A DNA stretch of 64,000 bases. It comes from an uncultured Nitrospiraceae bacterium. Its GTDB lineage: Bacteria; Nitrospirota; Nitrospiria; Nitrospirales; Nitrospiraceae. Position 1 is the first letter of the stretch. The number at the start of each line of letters is the position of its first letter. The notes under the pieces are model-generated. The model did not search any database. It was not told where the DNA came from and saw nothing but the letters and a program-made list of their open reading frames with translations. The stretch is taken from NCBI GenBank assembly GCA_963706325.1, contig CAVPLT010000001.1, positions 448,001 to 512,000 of the forward strand, in the 5' to 3' direction. Position numbers and translations under genes: made by a program. This document shows positions 51,852-62,138 of the stretch, piece after piece.

Positions 51852-53330
51852 CTACGACGAACAACTGACGCTGAGGTGCTTACCCCAGTTCGGCGGCGCG
51901 GCGGCGTACGCTTCCATGCCGGCCTGTTCCACATAGGGATTCTGCAGCAGCTGCAAGAGGCGGTCGATCTCCGAATAGTCTTTCTGCTGAGCCTTTTCGA
52001 TGGCCCCTTGGGCGAGATAATTACGAAGAATGTACTTGGGATTGACGCGGTCCATTCGCCCACGGCGATCTTCATCTATGCTCTGCTCGCTTTGTAACCG
52101 TTCACGATATTGCCCGGCCCAGGCATCGAACCGATCCGGATTCAGGAAGTGTTCGCGCAGCCGTTCGTTCTTGGCGTCCGTGGCGGATGAAAACGTCCCG
52201 AGCTCGCGCCAGAATATCGTATAGTCCACGCGGCTTCCCACCAGCAGCGATTTGAGATCCTGCAACAACTCTTCATCTCCCGCCTGTTGATCAACCAGCC
52301 CCAACTTGGCTCGCATGAGGTCGCGATAGTGCCGGTCGACGCTTGTCTGATACCCATCCATGGCCGCCTTCAGCGCCTCCTTGGGCGCGAGCGGCAAGAG
52401 AGTCTGCGCCAAACAACTGAGGTTCCACAGGCCGATATAGGGCTGTTGGTTAAACGCGTAGCGTCCGTTGTAATCGGAATGATTGCAAATGAAACCGGGA
52501 TCGTAATCGTCCATGAAGCCGTAGGGCCCATAGTCGAGCGTGATGCCAAGGATCGACATGTTGTCGGTATTCAACACGCCATGCGCCCACCCGACTGCTT
52601 GCCACTGCGCGACCAATCTTGCGGTGCGCTCGACCACCTCGGCGAAAAAGCTGACATACGGTTCCGATTCATCCAGCAACTGTGGAAAATGCTGGGCGAT
52701 CACATAGTCGGCCAGGACTTTCAGATGCTCATGCTGCTTACGGTAGTAGAAAATCTCAAACGTGCCGAACCGCACATGCGACGGGGCCATGCGGACGATC
52801 GTTGCGCCGGTTTCGACTTGCTCGCGATACACTTGGTCGTCGCTGCCCACCAGGCATAAGGCCCGCGTCGTTGGAATGCCCAGCCCATGCATGGCTTCGC
52901 AGCAGAGATATTCACGGATCGCCGAACGGAGCACGGATCGCCCATCCCCATCGCGAGAAAACGGCGTCATCCCCGCCCCCTTAAGGTGCAGGTCCCATCG
53001 TTCGCCACGCTCATTCTTCACTTCCCCAAGTAGAATCGCCCGACCGTCACCGAGCTGCGGCACGTAGACCCCGAACTGATGACCGGAATACACCATCGCC
53101 AGCGGCTCCATGCCCGGCACCAAAAGACTTCCTCCGAACACTCCCGCGAATTCCGAACGTGTCGTCTCATGGAAGTCGAGATCGATCAAAGCCGCCGCGG
53201 ATGGATTCGCGCTGATGAGAAACGGCGCCGTGGAAAATGGCGTGGGGTTCACTTTGGCGTAAAAGACCTCCGGCAAGCGCGCATAGCTGTTGTCGAAAGT
53301 CAGTGATTCGAGCGTAAGGGAATGGGTCAT
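51852..53330 (-). CDS. selO: Protein adenylyltransferase SelO (YdiU)
   Basis: YSGHQFG...QLGDGRAILLGE, LKGAG.TPFSR.GDGR, HGVLNTDN, C-terminal SCSS. Confidence 0.95.
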   Translation of the reverse strand: MTHSLTLESLTFDNSYARLPEVFYAKVNPTPFSTAPFLISANPSAAALIDLDFHETTRSEFAGVFGGSLLVPGMEPLAMVYSGHQFGVYVPQLGDGRAILLGEVKNERGERWDLHLKGAGMTPFSRDGDGRSVLRSAIREYLCCEAMHGLGIPTTRALCLVGSDDQVYREQVETGATIVRMAPSHVRFGTFEIFYYRKQHEHLKVLADYVIAQHFPQLLDESEPYVSFFAEVVERTARLVAQWQAVGWAHGVLNTDNMSILGITLDYGPYGFMDDYDPGFICNHSDYNGRYAFNQQPYIGLWNLSCLAQTLLPLAPKEALKAAMDGYQTSVDRHYRDLMRAKLGLVDQQAGDEELLQDLKSLLVGSRVDYTIFWRELGTFSSATDAKNERLREHFLNPDRFDAWAGQYRERLQSEQSIDEDRRGRMDRVNPKYILRNYLAQGAIEKAQQKDYSEIDRLLQLLQNPYVEQAGMEAYAAAPPNWGKHLSVSCSS

Positions 53331-53577: not shown

Positions 53578-53607
53578 TTGATACGGACTTCGACCATACG
53601 ATACACT
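53578..53607 (+). promoter_or_regulatory. Candidate sigma70 promoter for the ilvA leader
   Basis: TTGATA-N18-TACACT. Confidence 0.45.
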
Positions 53608-53650
53608 CAGGCGCACTTCACATGTGACGCGACAGCACCTTGACCAAATC

Positions 53651-53719
53651 ATGACTCTCAATCTGCAGAATAACGGCATGAGCATGGCGGCGGCGATTAT
53701 GGTCGCCAGCTCCGCCTGA
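53651..53719 (+). CDS. Putative leader peptide MTLNLQNNGMSMAAAIMVASSA
   Basis: 22-codon ORF ending 41 nt before a terminator; its 3' end is complementary to the terminator 5' arm. Confidence 0.6.
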   Translation: MTLNLQNNGMSMAAAIMVASSA

Positions 53720-53760
53720 GCCTGCCTGCGATCGAGCGCGTTTTCTACGCAAGCAATGAG

Positions 53761-53800
53761 GCCCTTGGCGGAACCGAATCCGCCAGGGGCTTTTTCTTTG
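53761..53800 (+). terminator. Intrinsic terminator (attenuator) upstream of ilvA
   Basis: GCCCTTGGCGGA-accgaa-TCCGCCAGGGGC followed by TTTTTCTTT, about 50 nt before the start codon. Confidence 0.85.
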
Positions 53801-53849
53801 TATGTGGCGCCGGAACTGATTCGAGCGGAGTTTGGAGAAAGGAGTGTGC

Positions 53850-55058
53850 ATGCTGAATCTTGAAGACATCGAAGCGGCAGCCCGCCGGATCAAATCGGCA
53901 GTCTACGAGTCTCCACTGGTGCACTCTAAAATGCTGTCCGACCTGACAGGCAATGCGATCTATTTGAAGCTCGAGAATCTGCAAATGACGGGCTCGTTCA
54001 AGGAACGCGGCGCATTGAACCGCATCCTGACGATGACCGACGACGAGAAGCGGCGCGGCGTGATAGCGGCCTCGGCAGGGAACCACGGGCAGGGGGTCGC
54101 CTATCATGCCGCCAGGCGCGGTATCCCGGCCCAAATCTGGATGCCTCGCTCGACACCGATGGTCAAGCTAGCCGCCACCCGTGCCCATGGCGCCGAGGTC
54201 GTGCTGCATGGGACCTCCTACGATGAGGCATATGAAGGCGCCGTCGAACGGAGCCTGCAGACGAACGCGACATTTGTCCACGCGTTCGATGACGAAGCGG
54301 TGATCGCCGGACAAGGCACCATCGGTTTGGAGATTCTGGCCCAGAACCCGGCGTTGGATGTCATCGTCGCCCCGGTCGGGGGAGGCGGGCTCATTGCGGG
54401 CGTCGGTTGCGCCCTGAAAGGAAGACACGCAGGAATCGAGGTCATCGGCGTTCAAACCTCCCGCCTTCCATCGATGACCGCGGCCCTGAAGTCGAAGATG
54501 CCGGTGAGTCTTCCCCCCGCTTCTACCCTGGCGGACGGAATCGCTGTACGAAGGGCGGGCGCACTCACCCTGCCGCTGGTCAGCAAATATGTGGACCACA
54601 TGGTCACGGTCGAGGAAGCGGACATCGCCGCGGCGATTCTCGTGTTGCTGGAACAGGAGAAAACCTTAGCGGAGGGAGCGGGGGCGATTGCGCTGGCGGC
54701 GGTGCTGCAGGGCAAAACCGGCCATCGTGGCAAACACATTGCCGTATTGGTATCAGGCGGTAATCTTGATGTGAACGTGCTCGCCAGAATCATAGAACAG
54801 GGCATGGTCCGCGATGGGCGACGGCTGCGCTTACGGGTGCGACTGCCCGATTATCCGGGGGCGTTGGAAAGACTGGCCTCGGTGATTGCCAAAGCCAATG
54901 CCAACATTGTGGAGACTTCCTACAACCGTGCACATTATGGAGTGAGTTTAAACGAAGCCGCAATTGACATTACGATGGAAACCCGCGGACGCCATCACGC
55001 CTCGGAATTGTTGGCGACCCTGAAGGATTCGCAGTATGAATATAGTCTGGTGGAATAA
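53850..55058 (+). CDS. ilvA: Threonine/serine ammonia-lyase with C-terminal ACT domain
   Basis: KLENLQMTGSFKERGA, SAGNHGQG, VGGGGL, SGGNLD, LPDYPGAL ACT domain; AAAGGAG RBS. Confidence 0.92.
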   Translation: MLNLEDIEAAARRIKSAVYESPLVHSKMLSDLTGNAIYLKLENLQMTGSFKERGALNRILTMTDDEKRRGVIAASAGNHGQGVAYHAARRGIPAQIWMPRSTPMVKLAATRAHGAEVVLHGTSYDEAYEGAVERSLQTNATFVHAFDDEAVIAGQGTIGLEILAQNPALDVIVAPVGGGGLIAGVGCALKGRHAGIEVIGVQTSRLPSMTAALKSKMPVSLPPASTLADGIAVRRAGALTLPLVSKYVDHMVTVEEADIAAAILVLLEQEKTLAEGAGAIALAAVLQGKTGHRGKHIAVLVSGGNLDVNVLARIIEQGMVRDGRRLRLRVRLPDYPGALERLASVIAKANANIVETSYNRAHYGVSLNEAAIDITMETRGRHHASELLATLKDSQYEYSLVE

Positions 55059-55310: not shown

Positions 55311-55362
55311 AGGCCAGTCGTTGGTCCTTTTCTTAAGGACCGTCGGTTGGCCTTTTTCTTTT
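55311..55362 (+). terminator. Intrinsic-terminator-like hairpin immediately upstream of the DAB operon
   Basis: AGGCCAGTCGTTGGTCCTT-ttctt-AAGGACCGTCGGTTGGCCT followed by TTTTCTTTT. Confidence 0.75.
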
Positions 55363-55383
55363 CATGAGCCGAATGGATTCCGC

Positions 55384-57083
55384 ATGGTCTTGCTAGTGCT
55401 CGTGCCGCTCTTGCCACTGTTGACAGCGTTCATCGTGATGACCGGTCATCGCGCCGATCAAGATCAGACTGCGAAGGCCGGCCTGTTCCCTATCGTCGCC
55501 GCCTTCGTTGGGGCGCTCGTCACTCTGGTGCTCGTGCCCTCCGAGGGGGCTATCACGGTACAATTCTATGACCCGGCCGCCATGGCCAATCTCGCCTTTC
55601 CCATCGGATTCTACATCGACCGGCTGAGCGCGGTCATGATGGTCCTGATTTCGGGAGTGACCGCGCTCATCTATCGCTACTCGGTGGGCTACATGTACCA
55701 AGATCGCGGCTATCGCCGATACCTCGGGCTACTCGGCATCACCACCTCGGTACTACTCTGCATGGTGTGCAGCGCCAATCTGGTGATGTTATTTATGTTT
55801 TGGCAAATTCTTCCCTGGCTTCTCTTTCTCGCTGGCGCACAACCACGGGCATGTCGCGACGCTCGCGGGCGCCTCCAACACCTTTACGCTCTTGCGCCTC
55901 GGCGACGTGGTCTTTCTCGCCGGGATTGTGCTGGCCTATTCGCTCTATGGCACCTTCGAGTTTCAGGCGCTGTTCGCTCGCGCCGCGGAGATTCCCGTGA
56001 CCCTGTCTCTCTGGCCTGCTCTGGCTGGGAAATGGACGGCGTCACGGCGGTGACCTTGCTCATTTTCGTCGGCGCCATGAGCAAGTCGGCTCAGTTCCCG
56101 CTCCATACGTGGCTTCCACGATCGCTCTATGCGCCGACGCCGGTCCACGCGCTGCTGCATGCCGGCATCATCAACGCGGGAGGCTTTTTACTGAACCGAC
56201 TCGCCCCGCTCTATGGTCTGAGTCCCGACCACGCTTGCACGTCGTATTCCTCATCGGCATGCTGACCGCCATTCTCGGCGCGACTATGATGTTGACCCAG
56301 AACGACATCAAGAAGACGCTCGGCTTTTCGACCATCGGCCAGATGGGCTACATGATTATGGAATGCGGGTTGGGCGCGTTTTCCCTCGCCGTGTTCCATC
56401 TCATCGCGCACGGACTGTTCAAGGGCTACCGTCTTTTTGAACTGCGGCAACGTGATTCATAAGGCCCGACAAGAACCCTCGTTCCCGCAGGCCGGTCACG
56501 AGGCGGAAGACAGCCAGATTCTCCAACCTGACCTGGTCCACCGGATTCGTGACGACGCTCCTCTTGCCGCTCGTGATCCTCTTGGTCACGCATGGCATCT
56601 TGAGAATTCCGCTGCTGGAATCGCAGGGGACCGTGATCTTTCTGTTCTTTATCTGGGTCACGTCCTCGCAGGCCATTCTGTCATTGACGCGCATTCGCGC
56701 CGTCGCGTCCTGGAAGGTGTCCGCCGCCATGCTGCTTACGCTCATCTTCGTCCTGTTCACCTACCTGTTCGCGGTCGAGAGCTTCACGCATTTCCTTTAC
56801 CCCGATCCCGATGAGGTGGCGTCGTACTTTCGAGGCCGCGGCATTGCCGGGCCGGCTCTTCGATCGCCTGGTGTCGGGCACGACGTTGTTGACGTCCTCG
56901 GCTGGTTTTACGTCTATGCCCATGCGCATGGGCGGACGATCCGCATGCCAGCCTGGATTGAAGGGTCTTCTGACTCGTCTGTATGTCCTGTTTATGAATC
57001 GACTCTATCTCGACGCAGCTGTATTTCAAACTCGGCCGGGTCGTGACGCTGGTCGCCCATCGGCTGGAGAAACGGTCTCGTGA
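55384..57083 (+). CDS. NuoL/ND5-like membrane subunit of DAB inorganic-carbon transporter (DabB-like), several frameshifts
   Basis: IDRLSAVM, KSAQFPLHTWLP..APTPVHALLHAGIINAGG, STIGQMG, HLIAHGLFK across fragments; upstream of DUF2309. Confidence 0.85.
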
Positions 57084-57143
57084 CGATGTCCGCACCAGGA
57101 ACGCACACGTCAGCGATCCGCTATGCCTGGCCGGAGGCCGGTC

Positions 57144-58468
57144 ATGATACAGGCTTGGATGACGCCCTGGCTTCTCGTCGCCATTCCGTGCCCTCGGCGC
57201 GGTCCTCAGCCTGCTCTGGTGGTCCTCGCTTCACCGGATGAAAACCTGGGGCGCTCACTCACCGCGATGGCGAGCTTGCTCGCGTGATGGCCCTGTCGTG
57301 GGTGCAGGACCGAGTCGCTCGCCGGCATGCCGTTACTCTGCCTGCTCCCATTGACGGCGTTCCTCTCGCTGCTTGGGACAGCCGCTGCACCCGGATAACC
57401 GCGCTGGCCTGGTCTGTCGACGTTGGTGCTGTTGGGATTGGGATTGGGAATTCTGACCGGTCAGGAACTGCCTCGCAGCTTCATGCTTGTCATCCTTCTT
57501 GGGCTTTTCTGCGGCTTGCATCTCTCGTTCGCGGAATGGCGCCTCCCTGAAGTCTGGCGAGCGCTGGCGATCCTACGGCCTGGGCATGGCCTCGGCCATG
57601 CTGTCCCTGGTTCTCCCGAGCACCGGCGTCCACAGTCGCTGTCCTGGTCACCTGTGCGACCCTCCTCCCTCTGTTTCCTCTGCACGGAGGATTCGTCGCG
57701 AGCCCTCACCGGATTGCCGGGCAATCTTCCCGCGTTTGCAGTCGTGCTGTTGCCCGTGGTCGGCTTTCACAGCCTCCTGCTAGGCTGCTTCCGAACCTGA
57801 CCGGAGCGATGCTTCCAACTCGTGACCATTCTGGCGCTGGTGGGCGCCTGTTATGGTTCGCTCCTGGCATGGATCAGTCACGCGTCCTCTCTCGCCTCGC
57901 CTACGCAGGCCTTGCCTTCTTGTCAATACTCTGGTGGTATGTCGCAGGCACGGGAACTGCGCCCGTGCAAACCACTGGTGTACCTCAGCGCCGTCGGCCT
58001 CGCGATGAGCGGGCTTTTGCTCGCCTGGTACTCGATTCGGGCTCGCTACGGCGACATCGACGTGCGCTCGCTTGGCGGCATTGGCTTACCCTATGCCGCG
58101 CTTCAGTACCCTGCTGTCGTTGCTGGCACTCGCGGCCCTCGGCATGCCGCCCTTCGGTGTCTTTTCCGGCTTCATGGGCATGCTGCTCAATCCTGCCTTC
58201 TCTCCTTCGGGACCGTTCGCCGTCATCATGCTCGTCTGGCTCAGCGCATCCTGGTACTTTCTGGATACTGGTGCAATCGGTTGGTCTTCGGCCGGCAACG
58301 GCCGGATCTGCGGTATGAAGACCTGCACCAGACGGAATTCGCGTCTCTCCTGATGCTGCTGGTTCTCCTGTTGGCCCTCGGCATCGCTCCCTTCTCGACT
58401 CTTTCAGTCGAACGCCACCACTCCATCGGAGGCTGTGGCGATCAAGGCTGCCGACATGGATCCAGTAG
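57144..58468 (+). CDS. Second proton-translocating (NuoM/MrpD-like) membrane subunit, many frameshifts
   Basis: GGAGG RBS; hydrophobic fragments incl. LAALGMPPFGVFSGF. Confidence 0.65.
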
Positions 58469-61400
58469 ACACAACGGACCACAGACCGGACCTCGAAGCG
58501 CGACGTATGGAGTTGCGGGGAATGATTCGCCTCGCCAGCGAGGTGATCGCCCAATACTGGCCCATGCGGACGTTCGTCCACCACAATCCGCTGCATAGCC
58601 TGGAGTATCTTCCGTTCACTGAGACGGTTCGTCGCGGCCAACAGTTCTTGGGAGGGCAGCGGCTATCTTCCGGGTGAACGTGTATCGACGCTATCTGAAG
58701 TCCGGCAGGATTCAGGTCCCCACATCGAGGAAGCATTGGCTCCGCTGGCGCGTGATCAGGAAGTGACCCTCGGACCCTGCAGCATTTCGCACCGTGAGGT
58801 GTTGCGGGCCTGCATGACACACGGACTGTCCACGTCCATGCACGAACCGCTCGATCCTCTGATGAGACGCGAGCCGAATGAGGAGCAAATCGAAGCTCTG
58901 GCCGAGCGCTTGGTTCCTTTTCGCGCCGACCGTCAAGGAACGCATGACCACCACGGTCCGCGAGGACTGTGGCCGCGTTGGGACGACAATTGACCCTCAC
59001 GGTTGGTGCGATCAAACGCTCGGCACCCAGATCGTGAACCAGATCAACGGCGAGTTGATCAAGTGGTGTGAGGCCTTTCTGGACGAGGGACATGCCACCT
59101 GGTCGATGCCTGGGACGGGAACAGGGTCTCTACGCGGCGTGGAAACGACTGGCGGTGAAGCGAATGGACGACTTGCGGTATCGCGGAGAGTCGCCGGAAA
59201 ATTGCATCCGCTGTCCGGAGCATCCCGAGGACACGGTGTTTGACTGCCTCGAAGCGTTGGCGATTCCCGCGGAGTTCCGTCACGATTACCTCTCGCTCCA
59301 ACTCGCCGCCCTTCCCGGTTGGGCTGGATTCATCAAATGGCGTGCGGAAGAGGACGCGCTATGCCTGGCAACAGGCCTATCCCGTCGGACTGGTCAAGTT
59401 TCTCGCTGTCCGCTTGTGGTACGTGCGCGAACTGGTCCAGAAAGTTTGCCAAGAAGAATTGGGTATCGAGGGAAACTATCGCGCGAGTCTCAACCTATAT
59501 GGAAGCAGCATCCCCATGCCTACTTCATGCGTAAGGAACAGGCCGCGGGACGGTTGCCGCCCGTCTATGCCGAACGAGTCGATCGCCTCCATGCCCAGAC
59601 GCAGCAGGACGCCAGGCGATCGGCAGCCTTGTCGCACGAGTGGGAACAGCTCACGCAGCAGTACCAGATGGAATTCGGATCGCCATCGCGAGCAGGCCGC
59701 GCGCCGAGTCATGGCCCGACGTCTCCTCACTCTCGCCCACGCGCTCGAGATCGTGCCCAGCCGTGTTGATGGAGGTTCCCCGACCGACCTTCGCGTGCTC
59801 GTGGATTGGATGGAGGCCTTTCCGGAATCGGCCCATGGCCCCGTGTGGCTCAAGGCCTTCGAAGCAGGATATCAGGACCATCTGTTCGGCATGCTGCTGC
59901 GCGCGTCGGCCAAGCCCCAACCGGCCGGTCCCGGAACATCAACCGCCGGTGCGGCCCCATTCGCAATCGGTCTTTTGCATTGACGTCCGGTCTGAGCCAT
60001 TCCGCCGCCATTTGGAATCGACCGGCGCAAACGATACGTATGGATTCGCCGGATTCTTCGCAGTCTTCATTCGGTATCGAGCATGGGGCAAGGAACATGA
60101 AACGGAGCAGTTTCCGGTGATCATGCGCGCGAAGAACGAAGTACGCGAGATCCCCCGCAGCTATCTGGATCACTACGTGTCTCAAGCACCAGTCACGGGC
60201 CAAACTCGTCCATGCCGGACATACCCTGTTGCATGATCTCAAGGAAAATGTCGTCACGCCGTACGTCATGGTGGAGTCGATCGGGTGGTTCTACGGCTTA
60301 CCCATTGTCGGGAAGACGGTGCTTCCCGCACTGTACAAACGTATCACCGACTGGGTGCGGCGTCTGTTTGTGCCGCCGATCGCCACCAGCGTCACGGTGG
60401 ACAAATTCGCCCCGGCCGAGACCGAAGAGATGCTGGTCGCCGAACAACGCGCGCTGATATGGAAGGCACTGCGCGATCGGCTCAGTCTCCATGGATCGCG
60501 GGTCGATCCCGAGTTCGTCGAAGCGTTACGACGGCGGGCACTGGACGAGGATGCGCCGGTCGAGCCCTTCTTGAGCAACGCGGCCAAGTCCGTCGGATCT
60601 GTCTGTGCAGAGCAGCTGACGGCGTTTCTCGAGGAACTCCGGGGGCACTACCGGATCAATCGCCGCGCGGCTTCTCGCCAGAAAGAACGGATTACGCGCA
60701 CCGGGTTCACCATCGAGGAGCAGGTCATCACCGTTGAAACCGCCTTGCGCATGATGGGCTTGATCAGGAACTTCGCGCGGCTCGTGCTGTTCTGCGCGCA
60801 CGGAAGCACCGACCGAGAACAACCCGTTCGAATCGGCCCTGGACTGCGGCGCCTGCGGAGGGACACGAAGGGAAACCCAATGCGCGTGTGCTGGCGGCGA
60901 TGGCAAATCGACCGCCGGTCCGAGAACGGCTGACAAGGCGTGGCATCGAGATTCCATCGGATACGCACTTTCGTCGCCGGACAGGTGGACACGACGACCG
61001 ATGAGGTGCAGCTGTTTGATCTCGAAGATGTGCCGCCGACACACCGCAAGGACGTGCGCCCGGTTGCTTGATGACTTGCGAGAAGCCGCCCAATTGACGA
61101 GCCAAGAGCGCTGCACGCGTTTCCCGGATGTCGAACGCCATCCTACCGGTTGCCCGAGGCGCGTCTCTGTGGACGGCCGGAGCGCAGACTGGAGCCAGGT
61201 GCGGCCCGAGTGGGGCCTCTCCAGCAATACGGCCTTCATCATCGGCCGACGAGATCTGACGAAAGGACTCAACCTGTCCGGACGCGTCTTTCTGCACTCC
61301 TACGATTATCGCGAAGATCCGACCGACCGTTGCTCGAAGTGGTGCTGACGGCGCCGCAAGTGGTGGCGCAGTGGATCAATATGGAACATTATTTTTCAGC

Positions 61401-61741
61401 CGTGGACAATGATGTGTACGGAAGCGGCAGCAAGATTTACCACAACGTGGTCGGGCGCGTCGGCGTCATGTCCGGTCCGTGGAGCGATCTCCGACTCGGG
61501 CTGGCGTGGCAGACCGTCATGAACGACGAGCTGCCCTACCACGAACCGATGCGCCTCCTGACGCTGGTCGAGGCGTCGCGCGCGCGCATCGAGATACTCA
61601 TCGCACGACATGAGGTGCTGCAACATTTTTATCACAACGAGTGGGTACACCTGGCCGACACTGGACCCGGAGGACGGAACGTGGTACCGCTATGTACCGT
61701 CCGGTTTCTGGCGTCGGGTCAGGAATCCGGCGGATACGTGA
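58456..61741 (+). CDS. DUF2309 / DabA beta-carbonic-anhydrase-like subunit, many frameshifts
   Basis: WPMRTFVHHNPL, LPGWAGFIKWR, FCIDVRSEPFRRHLE, GFAGFF, HGS, DCGAC, DWSQVRPEWGL, FLHSYD, QWINMEHYFS, YHEPMRL. Confidence 0.9.
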
Positions 61742-61796
61742 GGCACGGGCTAGACATCATCGTGTAAGATTAGGCTTTTTTCAAAGGAGTTGACAT

Positions 61797-62138
61797 ATGG
61801 GCGGACTGACGTTGCATCCCATGAAAGAAATCCGTGTGATCGTGTCGGGTGACAACCGCCCTTCGTGACCGAGCTGTTGGATAGAGTGGAGGCCACCGGA
61901 TACACCATCATCGGCAATATCTCCGGGAAGGGCCATCATGGCGTGCGAGAGGCCCACTTCATGTTCAGCGAACAGGAGAGCCTGGTCATGATCATGACGG
62001 TCGTGCCGGAAGAAAAGGTGGAACCGATGCTCGCCGGGCTGCGACCGCTATTCGAACGATACTCAGGCGTCATGTTCGTCTCTGACGTGACCGTGAGCCG
62101 GCGTGAGTACTTCGGCGAAGAAGGCGCCCAAGTCCTGA
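61797..62138 (+). CDS. PII-like (SbtB/DUF190-type) signalling protein; frameshift near 61860, end approximate
   Basis: AAAGGAG RBS; MKEIRVIV...ATGYTIIGNISGKGHHG...VMFVSDVTVSRREYF. Confidence 0.8.

Follow-up and report, generated by a model that had tools for sequence, protein, structure and literature searches.

The question raised by this locus is which amino acid, if any, governs the transcription of ilvA in an uncultured Nitrospiraceae bacterium whose ilvA gene is preceded by a short open reading frame and a terminator. In the stretch of 64,000 nucleotides analysed here (the window), a first-pass annotation had described a leader-peptide attenuator and proposed that it senses Ala- or Met-tRNA. 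Comparison with related leaders points to a different signal, and we assign a probability of about 0.7 to the reading that the conserved leader before ilvA is a classical isoleucine (branched-chain) transcription attenuator. The locus comprises the following parts:

53578..53607, plus strand: promoter-like site of sigma-70 type, TTGATA-18-TACACT (motif match; similar motif in homologues).
53651..53719, plus strand: leader ORF of 22 codons, MTLNLQNNGMSMAAAIMVASSA, with ATG at 53651 and TGA at 53717-53719, without a Shine-Dalgarno (SD) sequence.
53678..53704, plus strand: predicted stall window (codon content and ribosome-mask folding).
53686..53716, plus strand: protector hairpin, GGCGG 53686-90 with CCGCC 53712-16 and GGCGAU 53692-97 with GUCGCC 53702-07.
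53711..53772, plus strand: antiterminator, UCCGCC 53711-16 with GGCGGA 53767-72 and GCCU with AGGC 53759-62.
53758..53800, plus strand: intrinsic terminator hairpin and U tract (folding, covariation).
53838-44, plus strand: SD sequence of ilvA, AAAGGAG.
53850..55058, plus strand: ilvA, threonine ammonia-lyase with one C-terminal ACT-like domain, 402 aa (TIGR01127, Pfam PALP).

The promoter candidate, the 22-codon ORF and the terminator some 50 nt before ilvA, all proposed in the first-pass annotation, were found in the sequence. The motif TTGATA-18-TACACT occurred once against 0.5 matches expected in shuffles, which is weak alone, and 52 of 84 homologues carry a similar motif 35-44 nt ahead of the start position; transcription of the leader is predicted to start at about 53614. 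The terminator hairpin and its U tract are real, but the position 53761 previously given as their beginning falls 3 nt short, as the stem (15 pairs, loop of 6) spans 53758-53793; the U tract continues to about 53800 and ends 50 nt upstream of the ilvA ATG (53850). The ilvA product scored 482.3 bits against TIGR01127 (ilvA_1Cterm threonine ammonia-lyase), above the curated cut-off of 378.75, and Pfam returned PALP together with a weak ACT match. One-ACT threonine dehydratases have been described, the Nitrospira and Acidobacteria phyla not being named in the available portions of the two papers (PMC3901761, PMC3851459). The earlier caveat that the leader has no clear SD was also correct, the computed pairing with the anti-SD being +0.7 kcal/mol for the leader against -8.2 kcal/mol for ilvA.

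Contigs from two sequencing runs of other studies (X4 and X6) match the leader letter for letter (0 differences); the Val codon GTC therefore does not stem from misassembly, and sequencing error was rejected as the cause of the odd peptide. Two RNA runs (X19 and X20) yielded contigs inside ilvA only and are uninformative on termination.

Folding of the leader RNA returned the mutually exclusive pairings that had been noted before, with predicted energies of -26.8 kcal/mol for the fold of the protector region (53672-53727), -23.1 kcal/mol for the antiterminator and -28.1 kcal/mol for the terminator; the protector is predicted to reach about 53675-53726. The fold z-score of the region is a modest -1.96, and it is conservation, not any single fold, that marks the element as more than chance. 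A structure alignment of 84 copies, from which two truncated leaders were left out, showed that the pairings are conserved in the homologues. The terminator carried compensatory changes at 7 of 13 pairs, and none of 500 shuffles reached its score. The protector helices were paired in about 97% of cells with one-sided (wobble) changes only. The alignment of ilvA upstream regions that the first-pass annotation had put forward as a check thus revealed covarying pairs in the terminator. The antiterminator core, in which GGCGGA meets the leader end, was paired in 96.6% of cells, whereas GGCGGA and its own terminator 3' arm were unpaired in 23 and 24 of the 84 copies at two pairs; GGCGGA thus pairs better with the leader end than with its own arm, as a switch predicts. 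No compensatory change was seen in the antiterminator among the 84 aligned copies, and one appears only against related leaders located before ilvB, where a C-G pair replaces the U-A pair found here.

When a ribosome was represented by a 13-nt mask, the antiterminator core formed as long as the A site had not passed codon -5 (codons are numbered back from the stop) and never from -4 onward, a limit that follows from the assumed footprint, while the equilibrium model singles out no codon within the stall window. Equilibrium folding of partial transcripts without a ribosome also formed the antiterminator, at 0.99 in this genome and at a median of 0.23 across the 79 compared; because the equilibrium fold forms it unaided, kinetics would decide whether the antiterminator appears. 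The locus shows the hallmarks of a classical leader-peptide attenuator, namely a short ORF before a biosynthetic gene, a conserved frame, a terminator with a U tract and exclusive hairpins. Comparative evidence gives good support to ribosome-mediated attenuation of ilvA, as first proposed.

We infer that the leader is translated. Among 86 distinct leaders from all sources, counted after removal of duplicates and of two chance matches (L219, L228), 77 have their start codon exactly 22 codons ahead of the stop, and the stop codon is TGA in 71 and TAA in 15, with no other. The length is nearly fixed at 22 codons and the length changes seen are whole codons. Thr at -21 and Gly at -14 each make use of all four of their codons, with 12 and 14 synonymous changes, respectively, on a tree of 72 leaves from which L089-L091 and L095 were dropped for their shifted register and leaders without enough ilvA are absent. 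The upstream alignment thus also recovered conserved leader codons, as the earlier proposal had envisaged. ATT occupies codon -13 in 67 of the 86 leaders and ATC occupies codon -5 in 82. Internal starts at -13 or -11 with an SD of their own were considered and rejected, the pairing being too weak (median -2.8 and -3.5; +0.2 and -1.7 in this genome).

The leader is closely tied to one type of ilvA. This type occurs in 56 of 371 genomes of the family and the leader is kept before it in 55, of which 51 were found by pattern, the others being G152, G168, G209 and G286; in G018 the leader ORF is lost or replaced and part of the terminator is left (locus L005). The 315 family genomes without this ilvA gave a single pattern match (G104), which has neither a stop codon nor a terminator and was discarded as chance, like L219 and L228. 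A metagenome scan returned 43 leader loci. Where downstream DNA suffices, leaders precede ilvA, or a small ACT gene resembling the AHAS small subunit and then ilvA, the exceptions being L190, with an apparent insertion after the terminator, and L211, in which an ACT gene follows the leader and no ilvA lies within the locus. In L187 the 5' part of the leader is replaced. The stand-alone small ACT gene, usually before ilvA, was seen after the leader in L087, L089-L091, L097, L101, L119, L126, L127, L188, L211 and L261, its likeness to the AHAS small subunit having been Pfam-tested in L087, L101 and L211; this gene may act as a regulatory partner or may be left over from an ilvBN operon.

The closest relatives of this ilvA belong to Nitrospira/Nitrospiraceae and Acidobacteria. 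When 82 ilvA proteins were placed in a FastTree phylogeny with other Acidobacterial ilvA as the root, those of Nitrospira type were nested among the Acidobacteria-like ones, with support of 0.98 and 0.92 on the enclosing nodes, which suggests that the leader-ilvA cassette may have been transferred from Acidobacteria to Nitrospira.

The amino acid composition of the leaders argues for isoleucine. Within codons -15 to -5, the 17 Acidobacteria-like leaders (11 named and 6 assigned from their place in the tree, an ACT gene or similarity of sequence) hold 2-5 Ile (mean 3.9) and 0-2 Met, 9 of them having no Met, and the 68 Nitrospira-like leaders hold 1-4 Ile (mean 2.9) and 1-4 Met (mean 2.65). At least one Ile is kept within these codons in all 85 leaders counted, L187 being left out of the count. 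As the Acidobacterial copies are Ile-rich (AAAIIIA), the leader is likely an Ile/branched-chain attenuator by descent. The peptide studied here looks atypical because this genome is an extreme of the family, with one Ile in the stall window. Its codons there are ATG at -13, ATG at -11, three GCG at -10 to -8, ATT (Ile) at -7, ATG at -6 and GTC (Val) at -5, that is one Ile, one Val and three Met within -15 to -5. The single Ile codon, outnumbered 3 to 1 by Met, speaks against Ile as the signal in this genome; the Met codons sit mostly where the Acidobacterial homologues have Ile (ATT).

Under the isoleucine reading, RNA polymerase would start near 53614 and a ribosome would translate the 22 codons of the leader. 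As long as enough charged tRNA-Ile is available, this ribosome would run on to the stop codon and occupy UCCGCC-UGA, the terminator would form and ilvA would be off. With Ile in short supply, the ribosome would pause at the Ile codon or codons between -15 and -5, here ATT at -7 with Val at -5, and would mask the GCG strand, leaving UCCGCC free to pair with the GGCGGA of the terminator arm and allowing read-through into ilvA, whose product would supply 2-oxobutanoate for Ile. If the leader went untranslated, formation of the protector would make termination the default. The Ala codons would probably serve a structural role as a protector strand, and the Met codons would mostly be former ATT codons, the T>G change being predicted to be tolerated by the RNA. 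Such Ile-to-Met replacements would blunt the response to Ile and may add, as a by-product, a response to Met shortage. This genome also has a citramalate-synthase-like gene (split in the assembly) and with it a second route to 2-oxobutanoate, which could relax selection on the Ile sensor.

Related leaders were also found before ilvB. A covariance model of the leader, searched over 151 genomes of the order of G388, gave 7 matches, consisting of two copies of the ilvA leader, two leaders before ilvB and three spurious matches (L263, L265 and L266, terminator-only or coding) which were rejected; because of the latter, scores near 30-36 bits alone are no proof of homology for the ilvB leaders. A pattern search of the same 151 genomes gave 7 matches, against 2 in the reversed control; each of the 7 lies before an ilvB-like ORF, and one had been found already. 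Eight leaders before acetolactate synthase ilvB (L262, L264/L273, L267-L272) are rich in Ile, Val and Leu and have terminators. These sister leaders end in (V/I)xGPA-stop, mostly carry Gly-Val-Gly at the helix strand matching the Ala run of the ilvA leader, and have CCCGCC/GGCGGG where the ilvA leader has UCCGCC/GGCGGA. The shared ends, terminator arm and ACT gene make it likely that the ilvB leaders are homologous to the ilvA leader. Rfam searches on three of the ilvB sister loci returned no match.

A second type of leader precedes ilvA in 16 Acidiferrales-like loci (L133, L135-L137, L139, L140, L145-L148, L150, L151, L153, L154, L157 and L163). It is longer and Ile-rich, with five conserved Ile positions, ends in IIPIIRSG-stop and has its own terminator; this ilvA clade is thus tied to Ile-rich leaders twice. 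The last 12 codons of these leaders hold 75 ATT against 2 ATC, whereas the corresponding ilvA genes hold 165 against 330, and AUU looks like the preferred control codon. A preference for particular synonymous control codons is reported for attenuators in the accessible part of PMC1183508.

The alternative that survives best, although we consider it unlikely, is a dual Ile and Met attenuator, in which Ile-to-Met swaps were selected, uncharged elongator tRNA-Met also opens ilvA and Met is the main signal in this genome. The sum of Ile and Met within codons -15 to -5 is indeed 5 or 6 in 64 of the 68 Nitrospira-like leaders, each with 1-4 Met. At codon -13, which no search pattern fixed, the tree holds five changes from ATT to ATG and a single one to ATC, with none to GTT, CTT or TTT, although ATC is the commoner Ile codon in this genome (30.6 vs 17.4 per 1000); the first two bases of this codon changed 1 and 0 times, those of the next codon 11 and 10 times. 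Folding offers a different account of the same pattern, since ATG at -13 is predicted to be neutral (median 0.0 kcal/mol in 57 leaders) and ATC, GTT, CTT and TTT would over-stabilise the protector by 0.7-2.2, a result that also weakens the case for the conserved AT as a coding constraint. ATG at -13 moreover occurs only alongside T at stop+6, which permits an alternative pairing (12 of 57, vs 0 of 22 with G, the sequences being related and not independent). The toggling of codons -7 and -6 between Met and Ile on the tree would suit dual sensing, but ATG at either position is predicted to stabilise the protector by about 1.1 kcal/mol, and at codon -6 Met has also given way to Val, Lys, Thr, Ser, Arg and Leu. 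Third-base pairing of codons -13 and -7 was rejected as the cause of this toggling, as 15 ATT/ATT and 3 ATG/ATG combinations among 81 argue against it. At the metabolic level, no PF01053 gene (the Cys/Met PLP family, which includes Met gamma-lyase) was found at E<=1e-20 in this 96%-complete genome, and Met as a source of 2-oxobutanoate was discarded on this ground.

Vitreschak reportedly predicted in 2004 a Met-containing thrA leader in Pasteurellales, with Thr, Ile and Met codons. That leader resembles the present one in having Met codons in a classical attenuator, but there the enzyme serves Met synthesis, which ilvA does not; to our knowledge it is the only precedent of the kind. Met co-sensing is possible but need not be invoked, given that folding models predict the swaps either to be neutral for the RNA or to stabilise it. 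We likewise regard as doubtful the corresponding evolutionary scenario, that a cassette passing from Acidobacteria to Nitrospira was retuned by repeated AUU>AUG changes into an Ile and Met attenuator with Met as the main signal here; if it were true, the family would offer a naturally occurring series in which an attenuator's switch from one amino acid to another could be followed. The range from 1 to 5 Ile and from 0 to 4 Met provides in any case a natural Ile-to-Met series for testing the minimum number of cognate codons and Met as a signal.

A reading that dispenses with the charged tRNA, and which we judge very improbable, holds that the leader encodes an arrest peptide (IGIxMAAAxxIA) or acts in Nitrospira as a sensor of translation speed or initiation without amino-acid specificity, ilvA being accessory to the citramalate route. 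The nearly constant length and the Gly at -14, kept with synonymous variation, would agree with it, but the GG of this Gly codon is predicted to pair with the CC just after the stop, and arrest at the stop would favour termination, already given by normal translation. The restriction of ilvA to 56 of 371 family genomes and the presence of the citramalate-synthase-like gene can be counted in its favour, as can a precedent from Streptomyces coelicolor, where changing similar candidate codons of the ilvB leader had no effect, according to the part of the report available (PMC1262725). That precedent calls for caution in any inference from codon runs; the Ile- and Val-rich relatives of the present leader, by contrast, fit a sensor of charged tRNA.

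Least credible of all is an Ala-sensing attenuator, in which a shortage of Ala-tRNA would halt the ribosome at three tandem GCG codons and thereby open a pyruvate-supplying Ser/Thr deaminase, because the GCG codons form a helix and are conserved as nucleotides and not as residues. The three codons do lie inside the modelled stall window, and 2-4 Ala are present in all 85 leaders counted, but they are nearly always GCG (77, 81 and 81 of 86), a conservation that is partly ascertained as the search patterns included GCG codons. The swaps to GTG, GAG and GGG recur at these positions in loci selected solely through ilvA. The changes are 7 non-synonymous against 2 synonymous; most are GCG>GTG, by which a G-U pair is retained. 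G152, G168 and G209 have lost one Ala, and the sister leaders before ilvB mostly place Gly-Val-Gly at the same strand. An Ala run, one codon of which varies synonymously, is present in the Acidiferrales-type leader too, but this run pairs as well (CCGC/GCGG). Hauser and Hatfield are said to have proposed in 1984 that the Ala codons of the E. coli ilvB leader act in vitro, which we counted for Ala sensing. In the present leader the three GCG codons are likely structural, as the 5' strand of the protector helix, and the locus is a reminder that repeated codons in a leader may form one arm of a hairpin instead of a sensor. The Ala/Met reading of the first-pass annotation is thus mostly unsupported: its Ala part fails, and its Met part, although possible, is less likely than Ile sensing.

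The isoleucine attenuator proposed here can be compared with known systems. In E. coli, the ilvGMEDA operon, which includes ilvA, and the ilvBN operon are preceded by the leaders ilvL and ivbL, which according to the available text of PMC6123439 share with the present locus a short leader ORF, alternative terminator and antiterminator structures and a branched-chain gene. Their 32-aa leaders contain 15 and 11 branched-chain residues in that account (PMC6123439), against one Ile and one Val within codons -15 to -5 here (1-5 Ile in the family); in addition, the present leader has no SD and its target is ilvA alone. Attenuation of branched-chain genes dependent on an upstream ORF has also been described outside Proteobacteria, for Listeria Rli60 (PMC5864092) and the Corynebacterium ilvB-II/ilvBNC uORF (PMC10272879); as far as the accessible parts of these reports go, those systems, from other phyla and operons, were tested experimentally, whereas regulation at the present locus is predicted from sequence comparison.

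No Rfam leader, riboswitch, T-box or ilvB motif family reached the gathering threshold for this leader in the window or in L101, L132 and L136, and the leader gave no match to the Rfam ilvB motifs. The best Rfam match over the region was His_leader (RF00514), driven by the terminator; its 21.7 bits (E 1.9) fall short of the gathering score of 49, and membership was rejected on this ground and because the leader has no His codons. The available portions of PMC4833913 and PMC2965389 do not describe the leader, and our literature search found no report of it in Nitrospiraceae or Acidobacteria, although comparative surveys and supplementary motif tables may list it. Judged by its conservation, the element is real and probably an attenuator of a known kind in lineages for which no description was found, and it would extend classical branched-chain attenuation to Nitrospiraceae and Acidobacteria.

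As for the remainder of this genome, no second copy of the leader was detected by BLAST or with our own covariance model, a single match at E 0.2 being unconvincing, and the ORF listing showed no leader before its ilvB. A gene for a SelO/YdiU-family adenylyltransferase lies on the minus strand at 51852-53330 of the window, divergent from the leader promoter, and is likely unrelated to ilvA because the neighbours of ilvA vary between relatives. Downstream, at 55321-61800 of the window, a NuoL-like gene, together with the ORFs that follow, is split over several frames, as is the citramalate-synthase-like gene (G000:C1:253603-255247), and the assembly seems to carry many frameshifts. Outside the window, a T-box leader (L250:1072-1309, on G000:C5) is located just upstream of a leuA-like gene at 94342. 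Since it passes the Rfam gathering score (104.8 bits vs 93), this genome would combine a T-box for leuA with a leader-peptide attenuator for ilvA.
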